Virus record (IMG/VR): IMGVR_UViG_2778261094_000007 | From: a virus | Taxonomy: Duplodnaviria > Heunggongvirae > Uroviricota > Caudoviricetes | DNA: 7,594 nucleotides | Reading direction: 5' to 3' (one strand) | Shown here: piece by piece, positions 43-7,594 of the stretch | How the letters are laid out: each line of letters opens with the position of its first letter | Position numbering within the stretch: position 1 is the first letter of the stretch | Position numbers and translations under genes: made by a program | The notes under the pieces: model-generated | Seen by the model: only the letters and a program-made list of their open reading frames with translations | What the model was told of the DNA's origin: nothing | The model's database searches: none

Positions 43-242
43 TACTGGTTGTCTGGAGATTCAGGGGGCCAGTCTAAGGAGCAGCCGATCAATCTCGTCA
101 AAACTGGCTTACATGCTTAGGATCGCTCTATGAATTTGCTAAACGCCGTTATGACGGAATACCAGACAGTAACCCTTTTCACGGTCATAACCTCGAAGCA
201 CGTCGCACAATCGAGAGTTATCAACCGTTTACACCTGAACAA

Positions 243-806
243 ATGCAAAAGCTACTTGATGCAGCGGAGCCGGAGATCAGAAATATTATTTTAATGGGCT
301 TGTTTTCAGGATGCAGATTAGACGAACTGGCAAGCCTGAAAAAGTCAGAGGTTGTAACTGTGGAAGGAATACGCTGTTTTTATATCAGCAAGAGTAAGAC
401 TAAAGCAGGGATCAGACACGTTCCGATACATTCAAGACTATCGATTATTGTCGATGAATATTTAAATCATAATTATGGTGAATATTTGTTCCCTCACTCG
501 AACAAAGTAAAAAGAATCGACGGCAAGAAAGGCCCGTTCTATTCTCAAGCATTCTCACGTTTACGTCGTAGCGTCTTGCCAATCGCTACAGATAGACAAT
601 GCTTTCACAGCTTGCGCGGGATGTTTATCACTTGTCTTGATCGTGCCGGAGTGCCTGAACAGCGGATCGGAGCCATTACCGGACATACAGAGCAGAGAGC
701 TAAAACAGAAGCCTTTCGCACCTACTCACAAGGGGCAAGCATTCCAGAATTAGCTGAATATGTAGAATTAGTAAAATATGAATTAAATATTGATTTTAAG
801 GCGTAA
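243..806 (+). CDS. int: Tyrosine recombinase / phage-type integrase, C-terminal catalytic domain only (5'-truncated, probable remnant)
   Basis: Translation carries the ordered tyrosine-recombinase catalytic residues: Arg in FSGCRLDE (315-317), Lys-rich hairpin KSKTK, H-x-x-R in HSLRG (606-617), His in ITGH (684-686), Tyr in RTYSQ (723-725). The frame is open upstream to 78 and encodes linker-like sequence (LGSLYEFAKRRYDGIPDSNPF) but contains no ATG/GTG/TTG and is closed by TAA at 75-77; no Shine-Dalgarno before ATG 243. Confidence 0.8.
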   Translation: MQKLLDAAEPEIRNIILMGLFSGCRLDELASLKKSEVVTVEGIRCFYISKSKTKAGIRHVPIHSRLSIIVDEYLNHNYGEYLFPHSNKVKRIDGKKGPFYSQAFSRLRRSVLPIATDRQCFHSLRGMFITCLDRAGVPEQRIGAITGHTEQRAKTEAFRTYSQGASIPELAEYVELVKYELNIDFKA

Positions 807-836: not shown

Positions 837-1493
837 CTATTTCACTTCTCCGTCATACGTCGGGAGGGTGTCTTTAGTGGTGCTGGCTGTTCCTGCATTG
901 GTTGGCACTCGGCTTTTTACCTGTCCGCCTGTGCTCTTAGGTGATGCGGTCTTTACAGCAATAGCATTAGTGGTTGCATAGCTCACCAGGCGGATTTGTT
1001 CGAACTGCAAATCGAACTGTAAAGCTGATTCTGTTTTATATTCGTAGTCAATGCCTGTCAGAATCATATTATCAAACGTCTTATGCTCTGTGCTTACAAT
1101 AATAGGCTGTCTGGCATTCATTATTTCATCAAGATAAGCAATAGCCTGTGAACACCTGTTACCGTTCACCCCTGCACTTGATAGCATATCACCACGTAAT
1201 GCTAATGGTGTTTCTGTAATAATGCCTGAAAGCATAAGTTTATTATTCTTGATCCTGACATTATCAGATACATCATTACCATCCTGCACAGGATACGATG
1301 TAACATCGGCAGAACGTGAAACCTTAGTTGCCGGAACAGCGTCAAAAGTAATAGCTTTATAACTGGCTATCGTTGATGCATTTTCGTTATTCAGGTTGCT
1401 ACATATAATGGCAAATCCGTTATCAGATTTAACCTTGCTGTTAGATGTATTAATGTTAGATGTGCTGTTGATCTGACTTTCTTTGATAGCCAT
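837..1493 (-). CDS. Hypothetical protein, 218 aa, Asn/Ser/Thr-rich low-complexity termini; possible virion or tail-associated protein (function not established)
   Basis: Long ORF; ATG at 1493 preceded by AAGGA (1507-1503) with 9-nt spacing; last gene of the co-directional cluster, ending at the terminator hairpin. Confidence 0.65.
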   Translation of the reverse strand: MAIKESQINSTSNINTSNSKVKSDNGFAIICSNLNNENASTIASYKAITFDAVPATKVSRSADVTSYPVQDGNDVSDNVRIKNNKLMLSGIITETPLALRGDMLSSAGVNGNRCSQAIAYLDEIMNARQPIIVSTEHKTFDNMILTGIDYEYKTESALQFDLQFEQIRLVSYATTNAIAVKTASPKSTGGQVKSRVPTNAGTASTTKDTLPTYDGEVK

Positions 1494-1515
1494 TTATATT
1501 AATCCTTGTGTAATG

Positions 1516-1544
1516 AGCGGAAAGCAATAAATATTGCCCCCGCT
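1516..1544 (-). promoter_or_regulatory. Nested intergenic stem-loop (outer agcgg/ccgct, inner gcaata/tattgc) between the 633-aa and 218-aa genes
   Basis: Outer 5-bp stem 1516-1520 / 1540-1544 and inner 6-bp stem 1524-1529 / 1532-1537; sits in the 73-bp gap just 5' of the 218-aa gene ribosome-binding site. No U-tract on the minus strand, so more likely an RNA processing or stability element than a terminator. Confidence 0.3.
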
Positions 1545-1566
1545 TTATTATTAGTTATCGTTAAAC

Positions 1567-3468
1567 TTAGTTAACGCTACTCTGTCCTGACAACGTGCTA
1601 AGAATCAGATTCGAACTAAACTGATTGTTGTTCGCTCTGATCTCAGTGCGGATTAAATCCTGAAAGCCGGGACCGTTAGGGATGACGTTAACAGAGATCA
1701 TATCACTCGGCACCGTAACCTGTGCATTCACGTTAACAGGGGTTGCGTATTGACGTTGTAGGCTTACAGTCGGCTGATAGGCTTCTGCTTTACGTGCAAC
1801 AAGGGTTGATCCGTAGCTGTTAGCATTGCCATTAATTAAATCAGTCCACCACCCTGGAACGCCGGACTGTGTTTCCTCACCGCGCACAATACGCCCTACA
1901 TCTCTCGTATCGAGTCCAGTTGCATAACGAATACCTTCATTGATAATCGTTGATGGCGACCATTCCCCATCTGTAACAGCGTCCATAACCTTTTGTGTCT
2001 CAGGTCGGTTATCATTCTCACCACGGCTAAGATGTTTATTAATCCAGCTTGTGATTTGATTCCCGTAAGAAGTCATAGAGGTCAGTAATACAGCGCCTTG
2101 TTTAGCCAAATCCCCGAACGATGCACCAACACCATAAGCTGCATTCTGTAAGGCTTTGCTTTCTTCCGGTTTGAGTGCTGGCATGTTGGCTATGCCATCA
2201 AAGAAGCCCAAAATAGCCTGATTCGATAGTCCATCTGTCAGACGGTCAAAGGCTGTAGCTGTCTTGTTAGCTGCGCGATATTGCTCTTTCTGTGCTTCTG
2301 TCAGTAGCTGCCCGTTGTTTTTCATATCAACCATCGTTTTACGGAACTCTTCCCCATCACGGGAAAACATCTTGAGATAATGGCTGGCATCGTCTGCTAA
2401 TGGTTCGATCAGGGATATGATGGCTTCTTTAGTCATTCCTCGGCGTTCACCTTCTCTCACCACGTCTTGTAGGAGTTGCAGCGGTCGCCCCTGGTAGGAA
2501 GCTATCTTATCTTTGTTCCATGCAAAGGCATTCTGAATATCATTTAATGATCCTTCCCCGCCTCGCCACTCTTTTTTCTTACTATCCCATTCAGCAGTTC
2601 GGCTTTGATGACCAATGCGTTCGTTTAAGTCTTTGATATTATCAGTGGTCTTGTCCGCGCTTGCACTTGATACACCGTTTGCCCTCCCCCAATTAACCAT
2701 TGCAGCCACCTGATTGCTATCGGCACCTACCAGATCGCTCATCTTCTGCAATTCCATACGTTCACGGGCTTTTTCCATTCCAGCAGATACAGCCATACTT
2801 CCTAAGCCAACGGCAGCGCCGCCGATAATGCCACCAACACCGCCCATCATTAACGCGCCACCGCCGCTAACACCTTCTTTGTGGAGCTTCTTAGCAGTAA
2901 CTGGATATACCCCCCCAGCGGCAGCATTACGACGCGTAGCAGCGGCTGCGGCTCGTCTTTCTAATGTGATGCGGTCACGGATCAGGGCATTCATCTTCGC
3001 TTGCGATATAGCGCCGGATTCATAGAGGCGGGTTTGTTCCTTAATGTAACGTAGAGCATCGTGATATTTCTTAATATCCATCCCTTCGCCATAGCGGGAA
3101 TTGTTCTTGATGCCTTGTAACTGGCGATATGATGCAAGGCGCTTGATCTCTGCCTTTTCAGCAATTGAGGCTTGTTTAGCCTGTGCTTTAGCGAGGTTTT
3201 TAGCTTCCTGTAGCTTCTGTTTAGTGCTGGCTTTAGATGCCTGTGTCTCAGATTTAACAGCCTGCTTAACATGCTGATCATGCTGGCGCTGAATCTCTTT
3301 TCCCAGCCTCTGTAAATCTTTCTGACGTGCTGCCGCCACTTGCACAGGTTTGATCCCCTGCATCTTCTTTTGTAGCTTATCCACTTCATTCTTAGCTTTC
3401 TGTAAGCTCTTGAAATCAGTGGTAAATGTCACAACATTACTAATTCGTGAGGCGTTAATTTCTAACAT
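1567..3468 (-). CDS. Large coiled-coil plus glycine-zipper membrane-segment protein, 633 aa; tape-measure-like or ejection/pilot-like protein
   Basis: 1.9-kb ORF. N-terminal ~170 aa are K/Q/A/E-rich heptad-like sequence (coiled coil); aa ~201-231 read GGGALMMGGVGGIIGGAAVGLGSMAVSAG (DNA 2776-2868), a glycine-zipper hydrophobic segment typical of tape-measure and membrane-inserting phage proteins; C-terminal ~400 aa globular. AGGGA 10 nt upstream of ATG 3468. Confidence 0.85.
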   Translation of the reverse strand: MLEINASRISNVVTFTTDFKSLQKAKNEVDKLQKKMQGIKPVQVAAARQKDLQRLGKEIQRQHDQHVKQAVKSETQASKASTKQKLQEAKNLAKAQAKQASIAEKAEIKRLASYRQLQGIKNNSRYGEGMDIKKYHDALRYIKEQTRLYESGAISQAKMNALIRDRITLERRAAAAATRRNAAAGGVYPVTAKKLHKEGVSGGGALMMGGVGGIIGGAAVGLGSMAVSAGMEKARERMELQKMSDLVGADSNQVAAMVNWGRANGVSSASADKTTDNIKDLNERIGHQSRTAEWDSKKKEWRGGEGSLNDIQNAFAWNKDKIASYQGRPLQLLQDVVREGERRGMTKEAIISLIEPLADDASHYLKMFSRDGEEFRKTMVDMKNNGQLLTEAQKEQYRAANKTATAFDRLTDGLSNQAILGFFDGIANMPALKPEESKALQNAAYGVGASFGDLAKQGAVLLTSMTSYGNQITSWINKHLSRGENDNRPETQKVMDAVTDGEWSPSTIINEGIRYATGLDTRDVGRIVRGEETQSGVPGWWTDLINGNANSYGSTLVARKAEAYQPTVSLQRQYATPVNVNAQVTVPSDMISVNVIPNGPGFQDLIRTEIRANNNQFSSNLILSTLSGQSSVN

Positions 3469-3502
3469 GTTAATTGTTTCCCTGTATTATGATTGTTGTT
3501 TG

Positions 3503-3700
3503 TTATTGTTTTTTAAAGCAATAATATTGGATTGCCTCAAAAGTGCTGCATCCAGTCTGAAAGACACGCTGCCGCACATTATTCGAATCAATTGAAAGCA
3601 TTCTGCATAAGGCACTGACATTGATTATTGAGTCATCGCTAATAGCTGCCAGTTCTTTTACAGATTTAAGAATTAATGCCTGTGAATTTTCTGTGTTCAT
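3503..3700 (-). CDS. Small hypothetical protein, 65 aa
   Basis: ORF in the same orientation between the capsid-like and 633-aa genes; ATG at 3700 preceded by a purine-rich GAGAGAAAA stretch; non-low-complexity composition. Short, so uncertain. Confidence 0.45.
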   Translation of the reverse strand: MNTENSQALILKSVKELAAISDDSIINVSALCRMLSIDSNNVRQRVFQTGCSTFEAIQYYCFKKQ

Positions 3701-3826
3701 TGGTTTTCTCTCACATATATATTTTTATTTGGGTTTGTAGACAGTAGAAAAACAAAAAAGGGCAAGAGACAGCGCATATTTTGCTTATATGATTATCCCT
3801 TACCCTTATTGCCCCGATTATTTCCA

Positions 3827-3843
3827 GACGATGGGGAATCGTC
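3827..3843 (-). promoter_or_regulatory. Stem-loop gacgat-gggga-atcgtc 13 nt downstream of the capsid-like gene stop; candidate partial terminator or mRNA 3'-stabilising hairpin
   Basis: Perfect 6-bp stem with 5-nt loop read directly; not followed by a U-run on the minus strand, so not a canonical intrinsic terminator. Confidence 0.3.
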
Positions 3844-3856
3844 TATTAACGCTTTA

Positions 3857-4888
3857 TTACGCAGCAGATCCGAAGATGATAGCTTGCGGAATGTTGTTTA
3901 CTGGCAGATAAGATGTCTCAGTAACCACAGATGGGAATTGGAATTCATCCTTGATTAGATATTGGTGATGTAACACGGCATCTTGACCTAACTCAGCATG
4001 ACGCACACCAACGCCGCTATGAAGCTGGTAACACTGTGCCGCTTTATCCATTACCGGAACAATTGCGAAACCGTTCTCTCCGATGTGAGCAACAATCTCA
4101 GGAAACATTGACACGTCAATAACAGTGATCCCACCAATCTGGAAAGAGTCATAGGCTGGGTTAGAATCAACCATACGGGTAAACAGGGCCGTAGCACTCG
4201 CATCGCCTGCATATTTCACCATGTCACTGATCAGCGGGTTAGATGACAAACCATCAGCAGCAGCGCCAGCAGCAAAGATAATTACACCAGTTCGCTTTGC
4301 AGCAAGACCAGACCCCAGCTTTTCACTCTGTAAGCGCACCGCTTTACGAATAGCAAGGAACGGGTTAACAGTAGTCGATGCAAAGTCGATAGCGGGTACC
4401 GTGGTTTTAGCCTGACCGTCGAGGAAGTCGAGATCACCTTGTCCGGCATATTCAGATTCAACTTTCAGGCCCAGCAGCGCGGTAATCAGATCCACTTCAA
4501 CACGGTTTGCGTGTGAACGGTAATGAGCCTCAGAGAAATCATTAACCGCTACCAGCATAGCATCAGAACGGTTTGGATATTGGCGGCTGTATTGTTCCAG
4601 GTCACGAGAAGTAACAGCGTTAATACTGCCGACGTGTTTCATCTGGAAAAGTTTGTTTGACCATTCCTGACGTTTAGAGGCGTTCCAGTCGCTTTGAGCG
4701 TAAGGCGAGGTTTCCCCAGCTACCTGCACAAACTGATCGATCAGGTCGGTAAGAAGAATGCTGTTTTCTGTATGATATTGCACATCGAACAGATCGAGAT
4801 TAGTAATCAGGGTATTAAGTGCATTCTCATAAGCAAAAGGAGTTACTACCGCAGTATTAACGCCAAAATATGTTGATAAATCATTCAT
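3857..4888 (-). CDS. Putative major capsid protein, 343 aa (size and position compatible with a lambda gpE-type capsid protein; assignment by context only)
   Basis: Long ORF with a strong ribosome-binding site (AAGGAAAATAATA-ATG), directly downstream of a ~127-aa Ala/Val-rich gene in the decoration-then-capsid order seen in lambda (gpD 110 aa, gpE 341 aa); low Cys, rich in A/V/S/T/D. No sequence-level identity to lambda gpE could be confirmed by eye. Confidence 0.8.
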   Translation of the reverse strand: MNDLSTYFGVNTAVVTPFAYENALNTLITNLDLFDVQYHTENSILLTDLIDQFVQVAGETSPYAQSDWNASKRQEWSNKLFQMKHVGSINAVTSRDLEQYSRQYPNRSDAMLVAVNDFSEAHYRSHANRVEVDLITALLGLKVESEYAGQGDLDFLDGQAKTTVPAIDFASTTVNPFLAIRKAVRLQSEKLGSGLAAKRTGVIIFAAGAAADGLSSNPLISDMVKYAGDASATALFTRMVDSNPAYDSFQIGGITVIDVSMFPEIVAHIGENGFAIVPVMDKAAQCYQLHSGVGVRHAELGQDAVLHHQYLIKDEFQFPSVVTETSYLPVNNIPQAIIFGSAA

Positions 4889-4902
4889 TATTATTTTCCT
4901 TG

Positions 4903-5286
4903 TTAAGTCGTAGGGATCGCAAGTTCTTCATAACCAGCAATTACAAAGCCGAGAGATTGCAGTTTTGCAATAACACTTGCCTTTTCCATGCTGTTAAATT
5001 CAATCCCATCTTCAGCCAGAATAACGAAAGTAGGATGTGCAACCACTACGCTTTCCTGTCCTTCATAAGCCGGTTCAACTACTACGTGAGCAATATCAGA
5101 TGCAGTTGTTGCTTTGGTGCCATCGGCTTTCAGCAAAGCCCCGACAATAAGATCGTCAGTGAGAGGTGAAGCCAGTTTGACGAGGCGATCTTGCAGCACT
5201 GGATCAGCAGCGTAAGCTACTACCTTACAGCGTGAACGGGAATTATCCGCATTCACTGCTTTTAATTTTCCATATGGGTTAGCCAT
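4903..5286 (-). CDS. Putative head decoration protein, 127 aa (lambda gpD-like by size, position and loose motif resemblance)
   Basis: ORF immediately upstream of the capsid-like gene (14-nt gap) with the same AAGGAAAATAAT initiation motif; segments SRCKVVAYAAD and GALLKADGT loosely resemble lambda gpD SRKLVAW and GILAVAADQ. Low-confidence function. Confidence 0.75.
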   Translation of the reverse strand: MANPYGKLKAVNADNSRSRCKVVAYAADPVLQDRLVKLASPLTDDLIVGALLKADGTKATTASDIAHVVVEPAYEGQESVVVAHPTFVILAEDGIEFNSMEKASVIAKLQSLGFVIAGYEELAIPTT

Positions 5287-5290
5287 AAGA

Positions 5291-5488
5291 TTATTTTCCT
5301 TTCAGTTGTTTAATTTTAGATTTAAGGGCATCAGCAAGACTAACCGCATCAGCCGATTTAAATAATTGGGCAGTGGTAGAACGAAGACTTTCGGGAGTAA
5401 CTCCCAACAGTGCGGCAACCTTAATGAGGTTTTCATCACTAACAATCATCGTTTCCCCGTCTTTGCTGATAATCATTTCTTGTTTCAT
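5291..5488 (-). CDS. Small hypothetical protein, 65 aa from ATG 5488 (the ORF track extends to a TTG at 5530); first gene of the structural cluster
   Basis: ATG at 5488 is preceded by AGGAA with ~9-nt spacing, whereas the TTG at 5530 has no Shine-Dalgarno and adds a hydrophobic extension that overlaps the upstream hairpin. Its TAA stop (5293-5291) lies inside the ribosome-binding site of the next gene. Confidence 0.6.
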   Translation of the reverse strand: MKQEMIISKDGETMIVSDENLIKVAALLGVTPESLRSTTAQLFKSADAVSLADALKSKIKQLKGK

Positions 5489-5520
5489 AAATAACGTTCC
5501 TGTTAGTGCCAGACAAATAA

Positions 5521-5568
5521 AAAGCCCCAATGCCGTAAGAGGTTAATTCTGACCAGCAAAGGGGCTTT
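5521..5568 (-). terminator. Terminator-like hairpin (stem aaagcccc / ggggcttt, ~32-nt loop) followed on the minus strand by UUUUUAUUUG, ending ~30 nt upstream of the first structural gene
   Basis: 8-bp stem arms at 5521-5528 and 5561-5568 read directly; minus-strand sequence downstream of the stem is ggggctttttatttg. The unusually long loop lowers confidence. Confidence 0.35.
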
Positions 5569-6425
5569 AACGTGCGGGCAATTACATAATTGATAAGTTA
5601 AACTATAAGAGGATTAAACATATCAGCAAATACACTTTTTAAATATACTTGATGATATGCTTAAAGGGTGAATAGATACTCCTGAAAACATGCTCTTAGG
5701 AAAACATGCGGAATCAATCAGGAATATCTATTCGGGGCGCGGTGGCCAACCGCTATCTTTCATGGTGTGGATGCACCAGTCAGATTTTAAGGAATCACTA
5801 TTCCAATCTACTCACAGATTAAATTTTTAATAATGATTAACTACACCAACAGTAATCTACCGTTTCAGAAAATCGTTTTTACAACCAAAGCTTATAGATC
5901 CGCATTCTATAAAACCCGTTTTGCTATCAATATTTCCAAAGTTTATTGCACCATTCTTAGCTAAACTCTCTCTGCTTGCGGCTAACGCTATGCAGATGAT
6001 TGTTTTTGACAACAACTTAATAGATTATTCTGTTACTAACTTCTGTCATTAAATAATAGTTTAATGATGTTAGTAAATAGTTATAAAATATAACTATCAG
6101 TGTAAGGCTCTTTAATGTTTTCTGACAAAATAAGGAGCTTTAGGATAAGCATAGATGAAAAATAAGAGCGGGAAGGGCAAGGAGATAACACCTACCCGCT
6201 TTTATCAAAATTAAGCACAATGCCTAACAACATTCATCAACACAACGTAGAAACAATCAACAATCAAAGAGGGAGTTATGATTATTCTAAAACTTCTTGA
6301 GAGATGGAAGGTAATATTTGTTAGAGGTTAATGCCACTCAACCTTTGAGGCTATCACCTTCCATATGCAGGGATTTATGACAGTAGAAGGATTAACACCA
6401 GTCAAAACCTTTTTATCTACCCCTA

Positions 6426-6445
6426 ATTTCATTATATAATGAAAT
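6426..6445. promoter_or_regulatory. Perfect 20-bp palindrome atttcattat-ataatgaaat; candidate operator or protein-binding site
   Basis: Sequence equals its own reverse complement over 20 bp; lies 28 bp downstream of the 102-aa gene stop in the AT-rich spacer; related ttcattat repeated at 6466-6473. Confidence 0.3.
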
Positions 6446-6472
6446 TGTTATAAATGCAAATGATTTTCATTA

Positions 6473-6781
6473 TCACTTAGAAGAAATAGCACTTTTTGCT
6501 AAATCATCTACTAATTGCTGAATCTCTTCACTTGCAGCCTTTAACGTGCTGGCGGTGTCTGTGATGATTTGAGTGCACAGCCTGGCATCGTCCTCTGATA
6601 GCTCTAAATCGCTCACCAGAGAGATAAAATCGTCAAGGCTTACATTCACCTTCATTAAGCTAATAACGCATTGAGAGAGCGTGTAATCGCATAAATCTGA
6701 ATAGGCTTGATTTATTCTTGTTTGTAGTGAGATAGTCAGATCTAAAAGTTGTTCCATTGCATTGCTAATATCTTCTTCCAT
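6473..6781 (-). CDS. Small strongly acidic hypothetical protein, 102 aa
   Basis: ORF with AAGGAG ~10 nt upstream of ATG 6781; its start overlaps the stop of the upstream gene (TAATG, 6783-6779), indicating translational coupling; composition is strongly acidic (many D/E, few K/R). Confidence 0.7.
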   Translation of the reverse strand: MEEDISNAMEQLLDLTISLQTRINQAYSDLCDYTLSQCVISLMKVNVSLDDFISLVSDLELSEDDARLCTQIITDTASTLKAASEEIQQLVDDLAKSAISSK

Positions 6782-7026
6782 TATGCGGCTTCTCCTTGTA
6801 ATGCATCATTAATCATATTCAATACGATGTTAAAAGGTGTCTTGAGCGTCAGCACTTCATCACGATAACGCTCTAATGCTTCGTAGTCTTCTGTTTCTTT
6901 TGCCAGTCGGATTAACTCAGCATAGTTTTTTGCATCAGACAGGATCATCTGAAATAATTGTGTTTCTTGAATATAGCCAATCATTATTTTTCCTTTTTCG
7001 AATATTTTCATTGGGCGCTTATACAT
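6781..7026 (-). CDS. Small hypothetical protein, 81 aa (alternative start at ATG 6984 giving 67 aa)
   Basis: ORF inside the coupled operon; ATG 7026 has only a weak GGGTG upstream, whereas the in-frame ATG at 6984 is preceded by AAAAAGGAAAAATA, a strong Shine-Dalgarno resembling that of the capsid-cluster genes. Confidence 0.65.
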   Translation of the reverse strand: MYKRPMKIFEKGKIMIGYIQETQLFQMILSDAKNYAELIRLAKETEDYEALERYRDEVLTLKTPFNIVLNMINDALQGEAA

Positions 7027-7041
7027 ACACCCATCATTTTA

Positions 7042-7500
7042 TTAGTTAGAACGTTTGTTAGAAGCTAATGTATCTTCTAAATGAGCCATCAGATCGACTT
7101 CCGATGCACCACCTACACAATTATTGAAAGCGTTAAATCCCAAAAAATGATGATAGGAGCTAAACCCTAAAAGCTGCCAACGTTTCAGAGTGCCATCAGA
7201 AATGATAGTTTGTTTTCTTGTTCTTGGGCGAAAGTAAACGCCTGGCATTGACTGGATTATTTCTAATTCTTCATCGCTTAATTCAGGGGATTCTGCTTCA
7301 AGAATAAATATTATCTCTTCCCCTGGAATTTCGTTATTGGTGTGTGTCGGTGGACGTTGTCTTGTTGAATTGAAGTTACTGTTTTTTTCAATACGTTTTA
7401 AGTTATTACGTTTCTTTTTCCCATTTTCCCTCTTTTTATGTGGATTATAAAAACTTAATGTCATTGTTACGATGAATATCGCCATAAATGCATTTGCCAT
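7042..7500 (-). CDS. Hypothetical protein, 152 aa: N-terminal hydrophobic segment, Lys/Arg/Asn-rich linker, acidic stretch, C-terminal domain
   Basis: 459-nt ORF in ~30% GC DNA where stop codons are frequent; N-terminus AFMAIFIVTMTLSFY is hydrophobic (possible membrane anchor or signal), followed by KKRENGKKKRNNLKR. No clear Shine-Dalgarno before ATG 7500, so the start is uncertain. Confidence 0.55.
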   Translation of the reverse strand: MANAFMAIFIVTMTLSFYNPHKKRENGKKKRNNLKRIEKNSNFNSTRQRPPTHTNNEIPGEEIIFILEAESPELSDEELEIIQSMPGVYFRPRTRKQTIISDGTLKRWQLLGFSSYHHFLGFNAFNNCVGGASEVDLMAHLEDTLASNKRSN

Positions 7501-7594
7501 ATGTATTGCCCGATCTGGGTAATGACTCCAACTTATTGATAGTGTTTTATGTTCAGATAATGCCCGATGACTTTGTCATGCAGCTCCACCGATT

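Follow-up and report, generated by a model that had tools for sequence, protein, structure and literature searches.

An integrative island of Escherichia coli with its own capsid and tail-core genes: a probable counterpart of the cholera PLE satellites

The capsid-forming phage-inducible chromosomal islands (cf-PICIs) of Enterobacteria carry a full head module, comprising portal, protease, head-tail connectors and small terminase, and have temperate phages as their helpers. In SaPIbov5, a Gram-positive PICI that relies on cos packaging, Ccm is a satellite-borne homologue of the helper's capsid protein with the HK97 fold, and makes satellite-sized capsids. In the EPIPs, a group of mycobacterial satellites, genes for a major capsid protein and for a tape measure protein occur together (bioRxiv 10.64898/2025.12.02.691453). 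The PICI-like elements (PLEs) of Vibrio cholerae, satellites of the phage ICP1, have a tape measure, a chaperone and a baseplate hub protein of their own, which are 19-41% identical to those of ICP1; PLE tails are chimeric and slightly shorter, and the satellite's own tape measure is needed for efficient transduction (PMC11838301). The DNA considered here, a stretch of 7,594 nucleotides referred to throughout as the window (IMG/VR record IMGVR_UViG_2778261094_000007), contains part of an island that is probably the E. coli counterpart of these cholera satellites.

The window is E. coli chromosomal DNA with a GC content of 41.7%. Two enterotoxigenic strains, B7A and TW10573, carry it at 100% identity, and approximately 72 of 5426 complete E. 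coli genomes contain 80% or more of it. It makes up the right-hand two thirds of an integrative element which, on balance, is likely to be a helper-dependent satellite of the Stephanstirmvirinae, encoding its own shell and tail core and taking the rest of the particle from the phage. The wider proposal, that the Enterobacteriaceae contain a widespread family of satellites which do to phi92- and phAPEC8-type lytic myoviruses what PLE does to ICP1, using their own capsid, cement, tape measure and tube initiator, and that the phages answer with a nuclease which resembles Odn of ICP1 and has taken over the satellite's origin-binding domain, is judged about equally likely to hold or to fail. At the centre of this interpretation is a cassette of six open reading frames (ORFs) at 837-5530, all lying head to tail on the minus strand, with a tyrosine integrase convergent on the plus strand. 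In order of transcription, the cassette encodes proteins of 65 amino acids (aa), 127 aa (decoration), 343 aa (capsid), 65 aa, 633 aa (tape measure) and 218 aa (tube initiator). The features of the window are as follows.

1-76, strand not assigned: end of the insertion sequence (IS) IS2, of the IS3 family, which has matches in many records and is absent from intact islands
77-806, plus strand: C-terminal part of the integrase, approximately residues 164-406 (Pfam Phage_integrase, 2e-11; phrog_1, 2e-23)
837-1493, minus strand: tail-tube initiator (Dit-like), 218 aa (Pfam Dit_like and PDB matches)
1567-3468, minus strand: tape measure protein, 633 aa (phrog_16051; PDB Phi92_gp134)
3503-3700, minus strand: conserved 65-aa protein encoded between the capsid and tape measure genes, no family assignment
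3857-4888, minus strand: major capsid protein of the lambda gpE family, 343 aa, with the HK97 fold (PF03864 matches of homologues; Foldseek)
4903-5286, minus strand: predicted decoration (cement) protein, 127 aa, gpD/SHP fold (Foldseek on an AlphaFold2 model)
5291-5488, minus strand: gene that opens the structural operon, 65 aa when read from ATG 5488 (RefSeq start; 79-aa alternative from a TTG at 5530)
5514-5568, minus strand: intrinsic-terminator-like hairpin and U-run, approximately 26 nt upstream of the first structural gene (z -3.4)
6156-6460, minus strand: sigma-70-like promoter (6460-6431), predicted structured non-coding transcript of approximately 270 nt (fold z -3.87) and terminator (6200-6156)
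6473-7500, minus strand: three small island genes (102, 81 and 127/152 aa) upstream of the spacer, no family assignment
7517-7594, strand not assigned: end of IS1; intact islands carry a Rep-like gene here instead

The 343-aa product is identified, on the strength of its predicted structure and of its relatives, as a major capsid protein of the lambda gpE family with the HK97 fold. Foldseek comparison of its AlphaFold model, which is of moderate quality (pLDDT 58), returned capsids only, headed by that of PhiTE (2e-10) and followed by those of ICP1, Bas63, Sf14 and lambda. Ten of 14 homologues match PF03864 (Phage_cap_E; best 2.6e-9), although the window protein itself does not. Directly upstream lies the gene for the 127-aa protein, the model of which (pLDDT 77.6) identifies it as a decoration protein of the gpD/SHP type: the decoration chains of PhiTE, Sf14 and Bas63 are matched at 1e-5 and SHP of phage 21 at 5e-4, all with a Foldseek probability of 1.0, and lambda gpD is matched as well. 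No sequence-level family match was found for this protein, and neither BLASTP nor a profile search detects similarity to the decoration protein of the phage ESCO13, discussed below; the assignment is made from the fold. A profile search recovered 141 homologues, all of approximately 125 aa and labelled as hypothetical, and all 120 of those listed come from Enterobacteriaceae or unlabelled samples.

The two tail proteins are assigned at the level of sequence. The tape measure protein matches phrog_16051 (1e-72) and, in PDB, Phi92_gp134 (1e-49). Directly following its gene is that of the tube initiator, the ring that joins the baseplate hub to the tail tube in contractile tails, which scores 98.1 bits against Pfam Dit_like (PF21821, 5e-28; cut-off 24.2 bits) and matches Phi92_gp135 (1.6e-68), the 'tube initiator protein' 9cuy_K (7e-7) and Pam3 gp17 in PDB. 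The preliminary description of this locus, made from the sequence alone, had recognised decoration-like, capsid-like and tape-measure-like genes, all of which are borne out by these structure, family and profile comparisons, including the HK97 and gpD-like folds it had proposed to look for; the tube initiator had been missed, as had the precedent of the chimeric PLE tails. It had also described the ribosome-binding sites as strong. Such sites are present, but they are of the AGGA type with a spacing of 7-9 nt, decent rather than exceptional.

The two remaining proteins of the cassette, both of 65 aa, have no Pfam, PHROG or PADLOC family match. The first is more likely to start at ATG 5488, as in RefSeq, because the TTG at 5530 sits within the terminator hairpin; positional counterparts of 64-73 aa occur in other islands. 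It may be a small scaffold, which is speculation. Five other islands have a homologue of the second in the corresponding place, which is that of the tail chaperone in PLE. As neither protein shows similarity to the phage genes at equivalent positions, 'scaffold' for the first and 'chaperone' for the second stay guesses.

The element as a whole is best seen in E. coli strain D3, which holds an intact copy free of the IS insertions (the reference copy, L001; other loci are numbered likewise), with the ETT2 secretion cluster on one side and glyU/actS on the other. Two copies of a direct repeat of 22 nt, TGGAGCGGGCGAAGGGAATCGA, perfectly matched and located at L001:19403-19424 and 32756-32777, bound 13,353 bp; the latter repeat copy is the 3' end of the glyU tRNA-Gly gene, and the other lies 86 bp upstream of the integrase gene. 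When the outer flanks are joined through one repeat, many E. coli genomes prove to contain the rebuilt empty site in one piece with 100% identity, and 3746 of the 5426 contain it at a coverage of at least 80%. Since the site is uninterrupted in other E. coli, the element is a clean site-specific insertion. The full integrase, adjoining the distal attachment (att) repeat, is a protein of 406 aa with a DUF6538 N-terminus (L001:19510-20730), so that the integrase said in the preliminary description to bound the cassette is real, if cut by IS2 in the window strain.

From the tRNA side, the island consists of a variable region, approximately 1.8 kb of non-coding DNA, genes for a 60-aa protein, a 62-aa ribbon-helix-helix (RHH)-like protein and a 222-aa Rep-like protein, and then small genes, namely those of four proteins without assigned function, followed by the spacer, the structural cassette and the integrase. 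The Rep-like protein has a winged helix of the replication-initiator type (HTH_36, phrog_270). Within the non-coding DNA, at L001:29780-29930, four semi-palindromic iterons of 17-22 nt (CCTAGGAAATGAGTTCC; L001:29829-29930), an AT-rich stretch and a strong hairpin make up an origin-like region that is a candidate replication origin. Between this region and the tRNA (L001:30488-32450) are found a serine invertase of the Hin/Pin type, a YecR lipoprotein and a hypothetical gene; a variable cargo slot is suggested here, because Klebsiella carries other genes at this position. Across the entire 13,353 bp, no terminase, portal, protease, neck, tube, sheath, baseplate or fibre match is obtained from Pfam or PHROG. 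The absence of terminase, portal, protease and major tail genes that had been noted for the window therefore holds for the whole element, and the packaging genes that might have lain just beyond the window are not present between the att repeats.

In the window strain, IS2 splits the integrase gene and IS1 separates the small-gene operon and the cassette from the Rep-like gene, while all structural ORFs are intact. This copy is probably disabled, and probably immobile, because its integrase gene is interrupted. A further copy, matching window positions 838-7517 at 98.5% identity, is found on a 166-kb plasmid of E. coli from a chicken (NZ_CP126938.1, 29493-38782); it appears to have been moved by IS elements, as it lacks the integrase and is interspersed with transposases of the IS3 family.

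Searching with the capsid protein retrieved only 18 clusters, the full-length members of which are all 339-346 aa. Homologues occur in Klebsiella, Citrobacter, Cronobacter, Pluralibacter, Enterobacter and a second type of E. coli island, and every genomic context examined is an island. Eleven loci were studied, from K. pneumoniae, E. coli type 2, three Citrobacter species, Kosakonia, Kluyvera, Enterobacter and Raoultella. The order decoration, capsid, (65 aa), tape measure is kept in every locus long enough to show it, usually with the integrase at that end; the related elements are approximately 11-13 kb in size and contain no other virion genes, and neither portal nor terminase was found in the members examined. 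The preliminary description had asked whether the gene set is a conserved unit; at least seven genera share it as such. Identity to the window proteins ranges from 41-57% for the capsid and 32-71% for the decoration protein to 24-32% for the tape measure. The tube initiator is optional: both E. coli types have it and it lies upstream of the head genes in Enterobacter, while in Klebsiella and Citrobacter it is absent.

The integration modules have been exchanged between the islands. Family members use unrelated integrases; integration is at tRNA-Gly(CCC) in E. coli and K. pneumoniae and at tRNA-Thr(CGT) in a Citrobacter and Raoultella (L010, L016), and the Enterobacter member has a different recombinase, of 551 aa, at the opposite end (L015:454-2109). 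The cassette is under purifying selection: comparison of the window with the strain D3 copy gives ratios of non-synonymous to synonymous substitution (dN/dS) of 0.13 for the decoration protein, 0.14 for the capsid, 0.09 for the 65-aa protein at 3503-3700, 0.24 for the tape measure and 0.06 for the tube initiator. Random decay does not fit these observations, because the unit is conserved, selected and mobile.

The phages to which the island is linked were sought among 50,697 phage records. The tape measure matches 134 of these at 32-33% identity and no other phage group; the phages listed have genomes of approximately 146-155 kb, and those for which the taxonomy was checked (ESCO13, Mt1B1_P17 and PaulScherrer) belong to Phapecoctavirus or Justusliebigvirus, in the Stephanstirmvirinae. 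The tape measure of the Klebsiella island matches the same 134 records. In ESCO13, genes for a 132-aa decoration protein and a 333-aa capsid protein are followed by nine neck, sheath, tube and chaperone genes, a 662-aa tape measure and the 233-aa gp261; the island has the first two and the last two genes of this module, in the same order, with the nine intervening genes missing. Similarity to ESCO13 is highest for the tube initiator, at 63% identity to gp261. The tape measure is 32% identical over the C-terminal 450 aa, with 15 of the first 16 residues identical and an LSTLSGQS motif at the C-terminus of both; at 599-634 aa, every island version is shorter than that of the phage. For the capsid protein, a local alignment of 183 columns gives 24% identity (E 5e-4) to the phage's major capsid protein. 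The phage capsid protein is equivalent to Phi92_gp124, and its relatives by sequence, PhiTE, ICP1, Sf14 and Bas63, are the structural neighbours of the island capsid. The GC contents of the E. coli island (40.4%) and the Klebsiella island (40.7%) are near that of the phages (39%), as against 50.4% for the E. coli flank.

Two patches of DNA link the island to the same phages more closely. One, of 320 bp, encodes the winged-helix domain of the Rep-like protein and is 93.6% identical to Mt1B1_P17 (gp053), muut, inny and BI-EHEC. The other, of 167 bp, is 98% identical to the Justusliebigvirus phages PaulScherrer (Bas60) and VEcB; it lies in the 62-aa RHH-like gene (L001:28326-28514) and corresponds to the hypothetical early gene bas60_0101 (L009:2968-3153), with 52 of 53 residues identical. 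Patches with 94-98% identity point to recent co-residence with Phapecoctavirus and Justusliebigvirus. The island-type winged-helix domain is present in just six phage records, and when nine small or unknown island proteins and the Rep-like protein, leaving out the RHH protein, were concatenated and compared with the phage set by tblastn, only the Rep-like winged helix was matched.

The phage gene that carries this domain, gp053, is an early gene of a lytic phage (L008:2634-3620; 20722-21708 in Mt1B1_P17, NC_052662.1). Its residues 119-210 are 88% identical to the island winged helix, a second, diverged winged helix is found elsewhere in the protein, and the C-terminus matches the phrog_681 endonuclease (2.4e-18), MUG113 (4e-4) and T5orf172 (0.037). 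In ICP1, Odn combines a RepA_N-like domain, 42% identical to the RepA of PLE1, with a T5orf172 nuclease, and cuts the PLE origin at the iterons (PMC8263062). The construction of gp053 appears to be alike, with a satellite-type Rep DNA-binding domain fused to a putative endonuclease of the T5orf172/MUG113 type, and if the analogy holds, the iteron origin of the island would be its target. A search of the first 50 kb of Mt1B1_P17 for the iteron motif gave one match, probably by chance. The possibility, raised in the preliminary description, of a new helper-dependent satellite or capsid-remodelling cassette is thereby supported by a candidate helper lineage, by shared DNA patches and by an Odn-like gene, from which we infer dependence on a helper.

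The spacer separating the cassette from the small genes (5531-6472; 942 bp, 34% GC) is the AT-rich region of about 1 kb that had been taken as the place where packaging and portal genes would be expected. The region is real, but the island does not end there, since small genes for regulation and replication lie on its far side, and it is not a gap left by lost packaging genes. On the minus strand it contains a sigma-70-like promoter (TTTGCA-18-TATAAT) for the predicted transcript of approximately 270 nt, which folds well, holds several CU-rich tracts resembling anti-Shine-Dalgarno sequences and ends in a hairpin and U-run. Within an otherwise diverged spacer, a 65-nt patch (5739-5802, minus strand) that includes the hairpin GCGGTTGGCCACCGC is 80% identical in E. 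coli type 2. Of the nine islands scanned, seven, L001 among them, have a near-consensus promoter with one or more terminators downstream of it, without conservation of the sequences; the exceptions are L003, for which there was no terminator call, and L017, for which there was no promoter call. Seven islands have a terminator just before the structural genes, a similar one being found in L007, L010, L013, L015, L016 and L017, and none was flagged at this position in L003 or L014. This layout suggests either expression of the structural operon by read-through (antitermination) or a regulatory role for the short transcript. The transcript could be an RNA of the kind of P4 CI RNA or PLE SviR, or an antitermination leader; a two-sequence RNAalifold analysis is too thin to claim a conserved RNA, and an Rfam scan of the window at E values up to 1 gave no match.

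Upstream of the spacer, the three small genes at 6473-7500 have no match in Pfam, PHROG or PADLOC, and ten small island proteins scanned with PADLOC likewise gave none. Counterparts of the 127-aa product, 33-50% identical, are found in eight other islands. In the window strain, a one-base difference from strain D3 in a poly-A tract (approximately 7415-7430) puts the annotated ATG of this gene out of frame, and the ORF is extended to 152 aa with a hydrophobic N-terminus. The 102-aa protein (window 6473-6781; L001:26394-26702) is acidic, and its RefSeq label of 'transporter' is unsupported by family searches.

Taken as a satellite of the Stephanstirmvirinae, the island would depend on an infecting large lytic myovirus, of the phi92, phAPEC8/ESCO13 or Bas60 type, for portal, scaffold and protease, terminase, neck, tube, sheath, baseplate and fibres. 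Upon infection it would be excised by its tyrosine integrase and replicated from the iteron origin by the Rep-like winged-helix protein. The structural operon would then be turned on through read-through of the spacer terminators, giving a shell fitted to approximately 13 kb and a chimeric tail built around the island's tape measure and tube initiator, probably at a cost to the phage. If P4, SaPI and PLE are a guide, an element of 11-13 kb would fit a small capsid. Several observations weigh against this account. No small terminase and no recognisable pac or cos site was found in the island, and the predicted circular attP junction is absent from the viral and metagenome contigs searched; the relatives in IMG/VR are provirus calls from isolate genomes only, and so uninformative on packaging. 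The capsid protein is only 24% identical to that of the phage, so that compatibility with its portal and scaffold is an assumption, the confidence of the capsid model (pLDDT 58) is low, and the decoration protein has no similarity in sequence to its phage equivalent. The shared DNA patches would imply no direction of exchange, and the nuclease domain of gp053 falls under the Pfam cut-off (21.2 against 22.3 bits), its identification coming mainly from the PHROG match.

Some of this would be expected of a non-transmissible defence island, in which the four structural homologues are dominant-negative decoys that poison Stephanstirmvirinae assembly and which spreads only vertically or by generic transfer, an explanation regarded as rather unlikely. 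The proteins are indeed diverged homologues of phage parts, the conserved ends of the tape measure could dock into phage tails, the Odn-like phage gene implies that the island harms the phage, and neither a packaging signal or small terminase nor an attP junction in the viromes searched was found; interference with tail assembly is a known defence strategy (PMC11364771, PMC11838301). Yet a complete shell pair of capsid and cement exceeds the needs of a decoy, the constant size of 11-13 kb, the integrase, the Rep-like gene and the iteron origin fit poorly with it, and swapped integration modules in several genera point to efficient horizontal movement. PADLOC found no match among the ten small proteins, and known satellites combine interference with transfer, so that the two roles are not exclusive.

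A satellite of some other, unsequenced helper, for instance a temperate myovirus, with the likeness to the Stephanstirmvirinae reflecting common ancestry of the tail module, is considered improbable. It would account for a capsid and decoration protein that are far from those of all sequenced phages (best matches 24-25% identity) and for tape measure identities that are mostly 30-40%, but not readily for the 94-98% identical DNA patches shared with Phapecoctavirus and Justusliebigvirus, the tube initiator that is 63% identical to the Stephanstirmvirinae version, or a tape measure that matches no other group in the phage set. Least probable, and already largely refuted, is an eroded remnant of a phi92-related temperate prophage with no present function, which the preliminary description had offered as its alternative. 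The damage by IS2 and IS1 in the window strain, and a gene order equivalent to a phage structural module with internal deletions, are what such a remnant would show. However, the same reduced set has intact frames in at least seven genera at capsid identities of 41-57%, with dN/dS of 0.06-0.24, precise boundaries, an intact attB, and swapped integrases and tRNA sites; no member examined has a portal or terminase, and the capsid, in its 18 clusters and 339-346 aa when full-length, was found in islands in all contexts examined.

If the satellite interpretation is correct, the arms race between satellites and lytic phages that is best known from PLE and ICP1 in V. cholerae gains a counterpart in E. 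coli, Klebsiella and Enterobacter. It would be a tractable one, as phi92, phAPEC8 and Bas60 of the BASEL set are in standard collections and the phi92 capsid and baseplate are available as cryo-EM structures. Phages of the phAPEC8/phi92 type are candidates for therapy, and gaps in their host range could be due to an island that hijacks or blocks them, which approximately 1-2% of complete E. coli genomes carry and which has related types in other genera. The islands would also provide a natural experiment on which virion parts have to co-evolve with a given genome size. A gene content that includes capsid, cement, tape measure and tube initiator but lacks portal, protease and terminase falls outside all four satellite marker sets (P4-like, PICI, cf-PICI and PLE), and such elements have probably been overlooked or mislabelled as 'incomplete prophage'.

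Compared with the described satellites, the island has two general properties of the group: it is small and integrative, with an integrase and att sites of its own, and its set of virion and packaging genes is incomplete. Membership of the P4-like, cf-PICI and PLE classes was considered and rejected in each case on defining genes, and since it fails these gene sets the island is placed outside all three. With P4-like satellites it shares a size of approximately 11-13 kb that is compatible with a small capsid, integration at a tRNA gene, a tyrosine integrase and a decoration function, which in P4 is provided by Psu. It has no homologue of Psu, Sid, Delta or the alpha primase-helicase, in keeping with the earlier remark that the classical P4 set is not matched, and P4 encodes no capsid or tail protein. 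The EPIPs resemble it in having both capsid and tape measure proteins in a small satellite; they differ in adding a small terminase, scaffold, head-tail adaptor, stopper and serine integrase, in using a prophage with a siphovirus-type tail as helper, and in their unrelated hosts. SaPIbov5 likewise has a satellite-encoded capsid homologue, but neither decoration nor tail genes. The literature search found no description of the island, of its protein accessions, or of satellites of Stephanstirmvirinae, Phapecoctavirus or Justusliebigvirus, within a coverage that was incomplete and leaves an earlier description possible. It appears to belong to an undescribed family of satellites in which the virion genes are divided in a new way.

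The cf-PICIs of Enterobacteria are similarly integrative islands, of approximately 10-15 kb, with their own HK97-fold capsid, and take their tails from the helper. By contrast, the island has no match to a portal, prohead protease, connectors or small terminase, and adds tail-core genes. The resemblance to PLE is more extensive. Both are small integrative islands apparently tied to one lineage of virulent myoviruses; both have a tape measure of their own, slightly shorter than the phage's, and a baseplate-proximal protein (19-41% identical to the phage in PLE, 33% and 63% in the island); and both have iterons and a Rep-like protein. Odn, the chimeric phage nuclease that reuses the Rep domain of PLE, would have its counterpart in gp053 of Mt1B1_P17. 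They differ in that PLE reshapes the ICP1 capsid with the external scaffold TcaP, whereas the island encodes a capsid and decoration protein; in the large serine recombinase and RepA_N of PLE as opposed to a tyrosine integrase and HTH_36 winged helix; in the hub protein BhuB as opposed to the tube initiator, with no recognisable tail chaperone in the island; and in their hosts, Vibrio as against Enterobacteriaceae, with no sequence homology to PLE genes seen. In the way it works, the island is closest to PLE as far as the tail is concerned, and for the head it partly resembles a cf-PICI.

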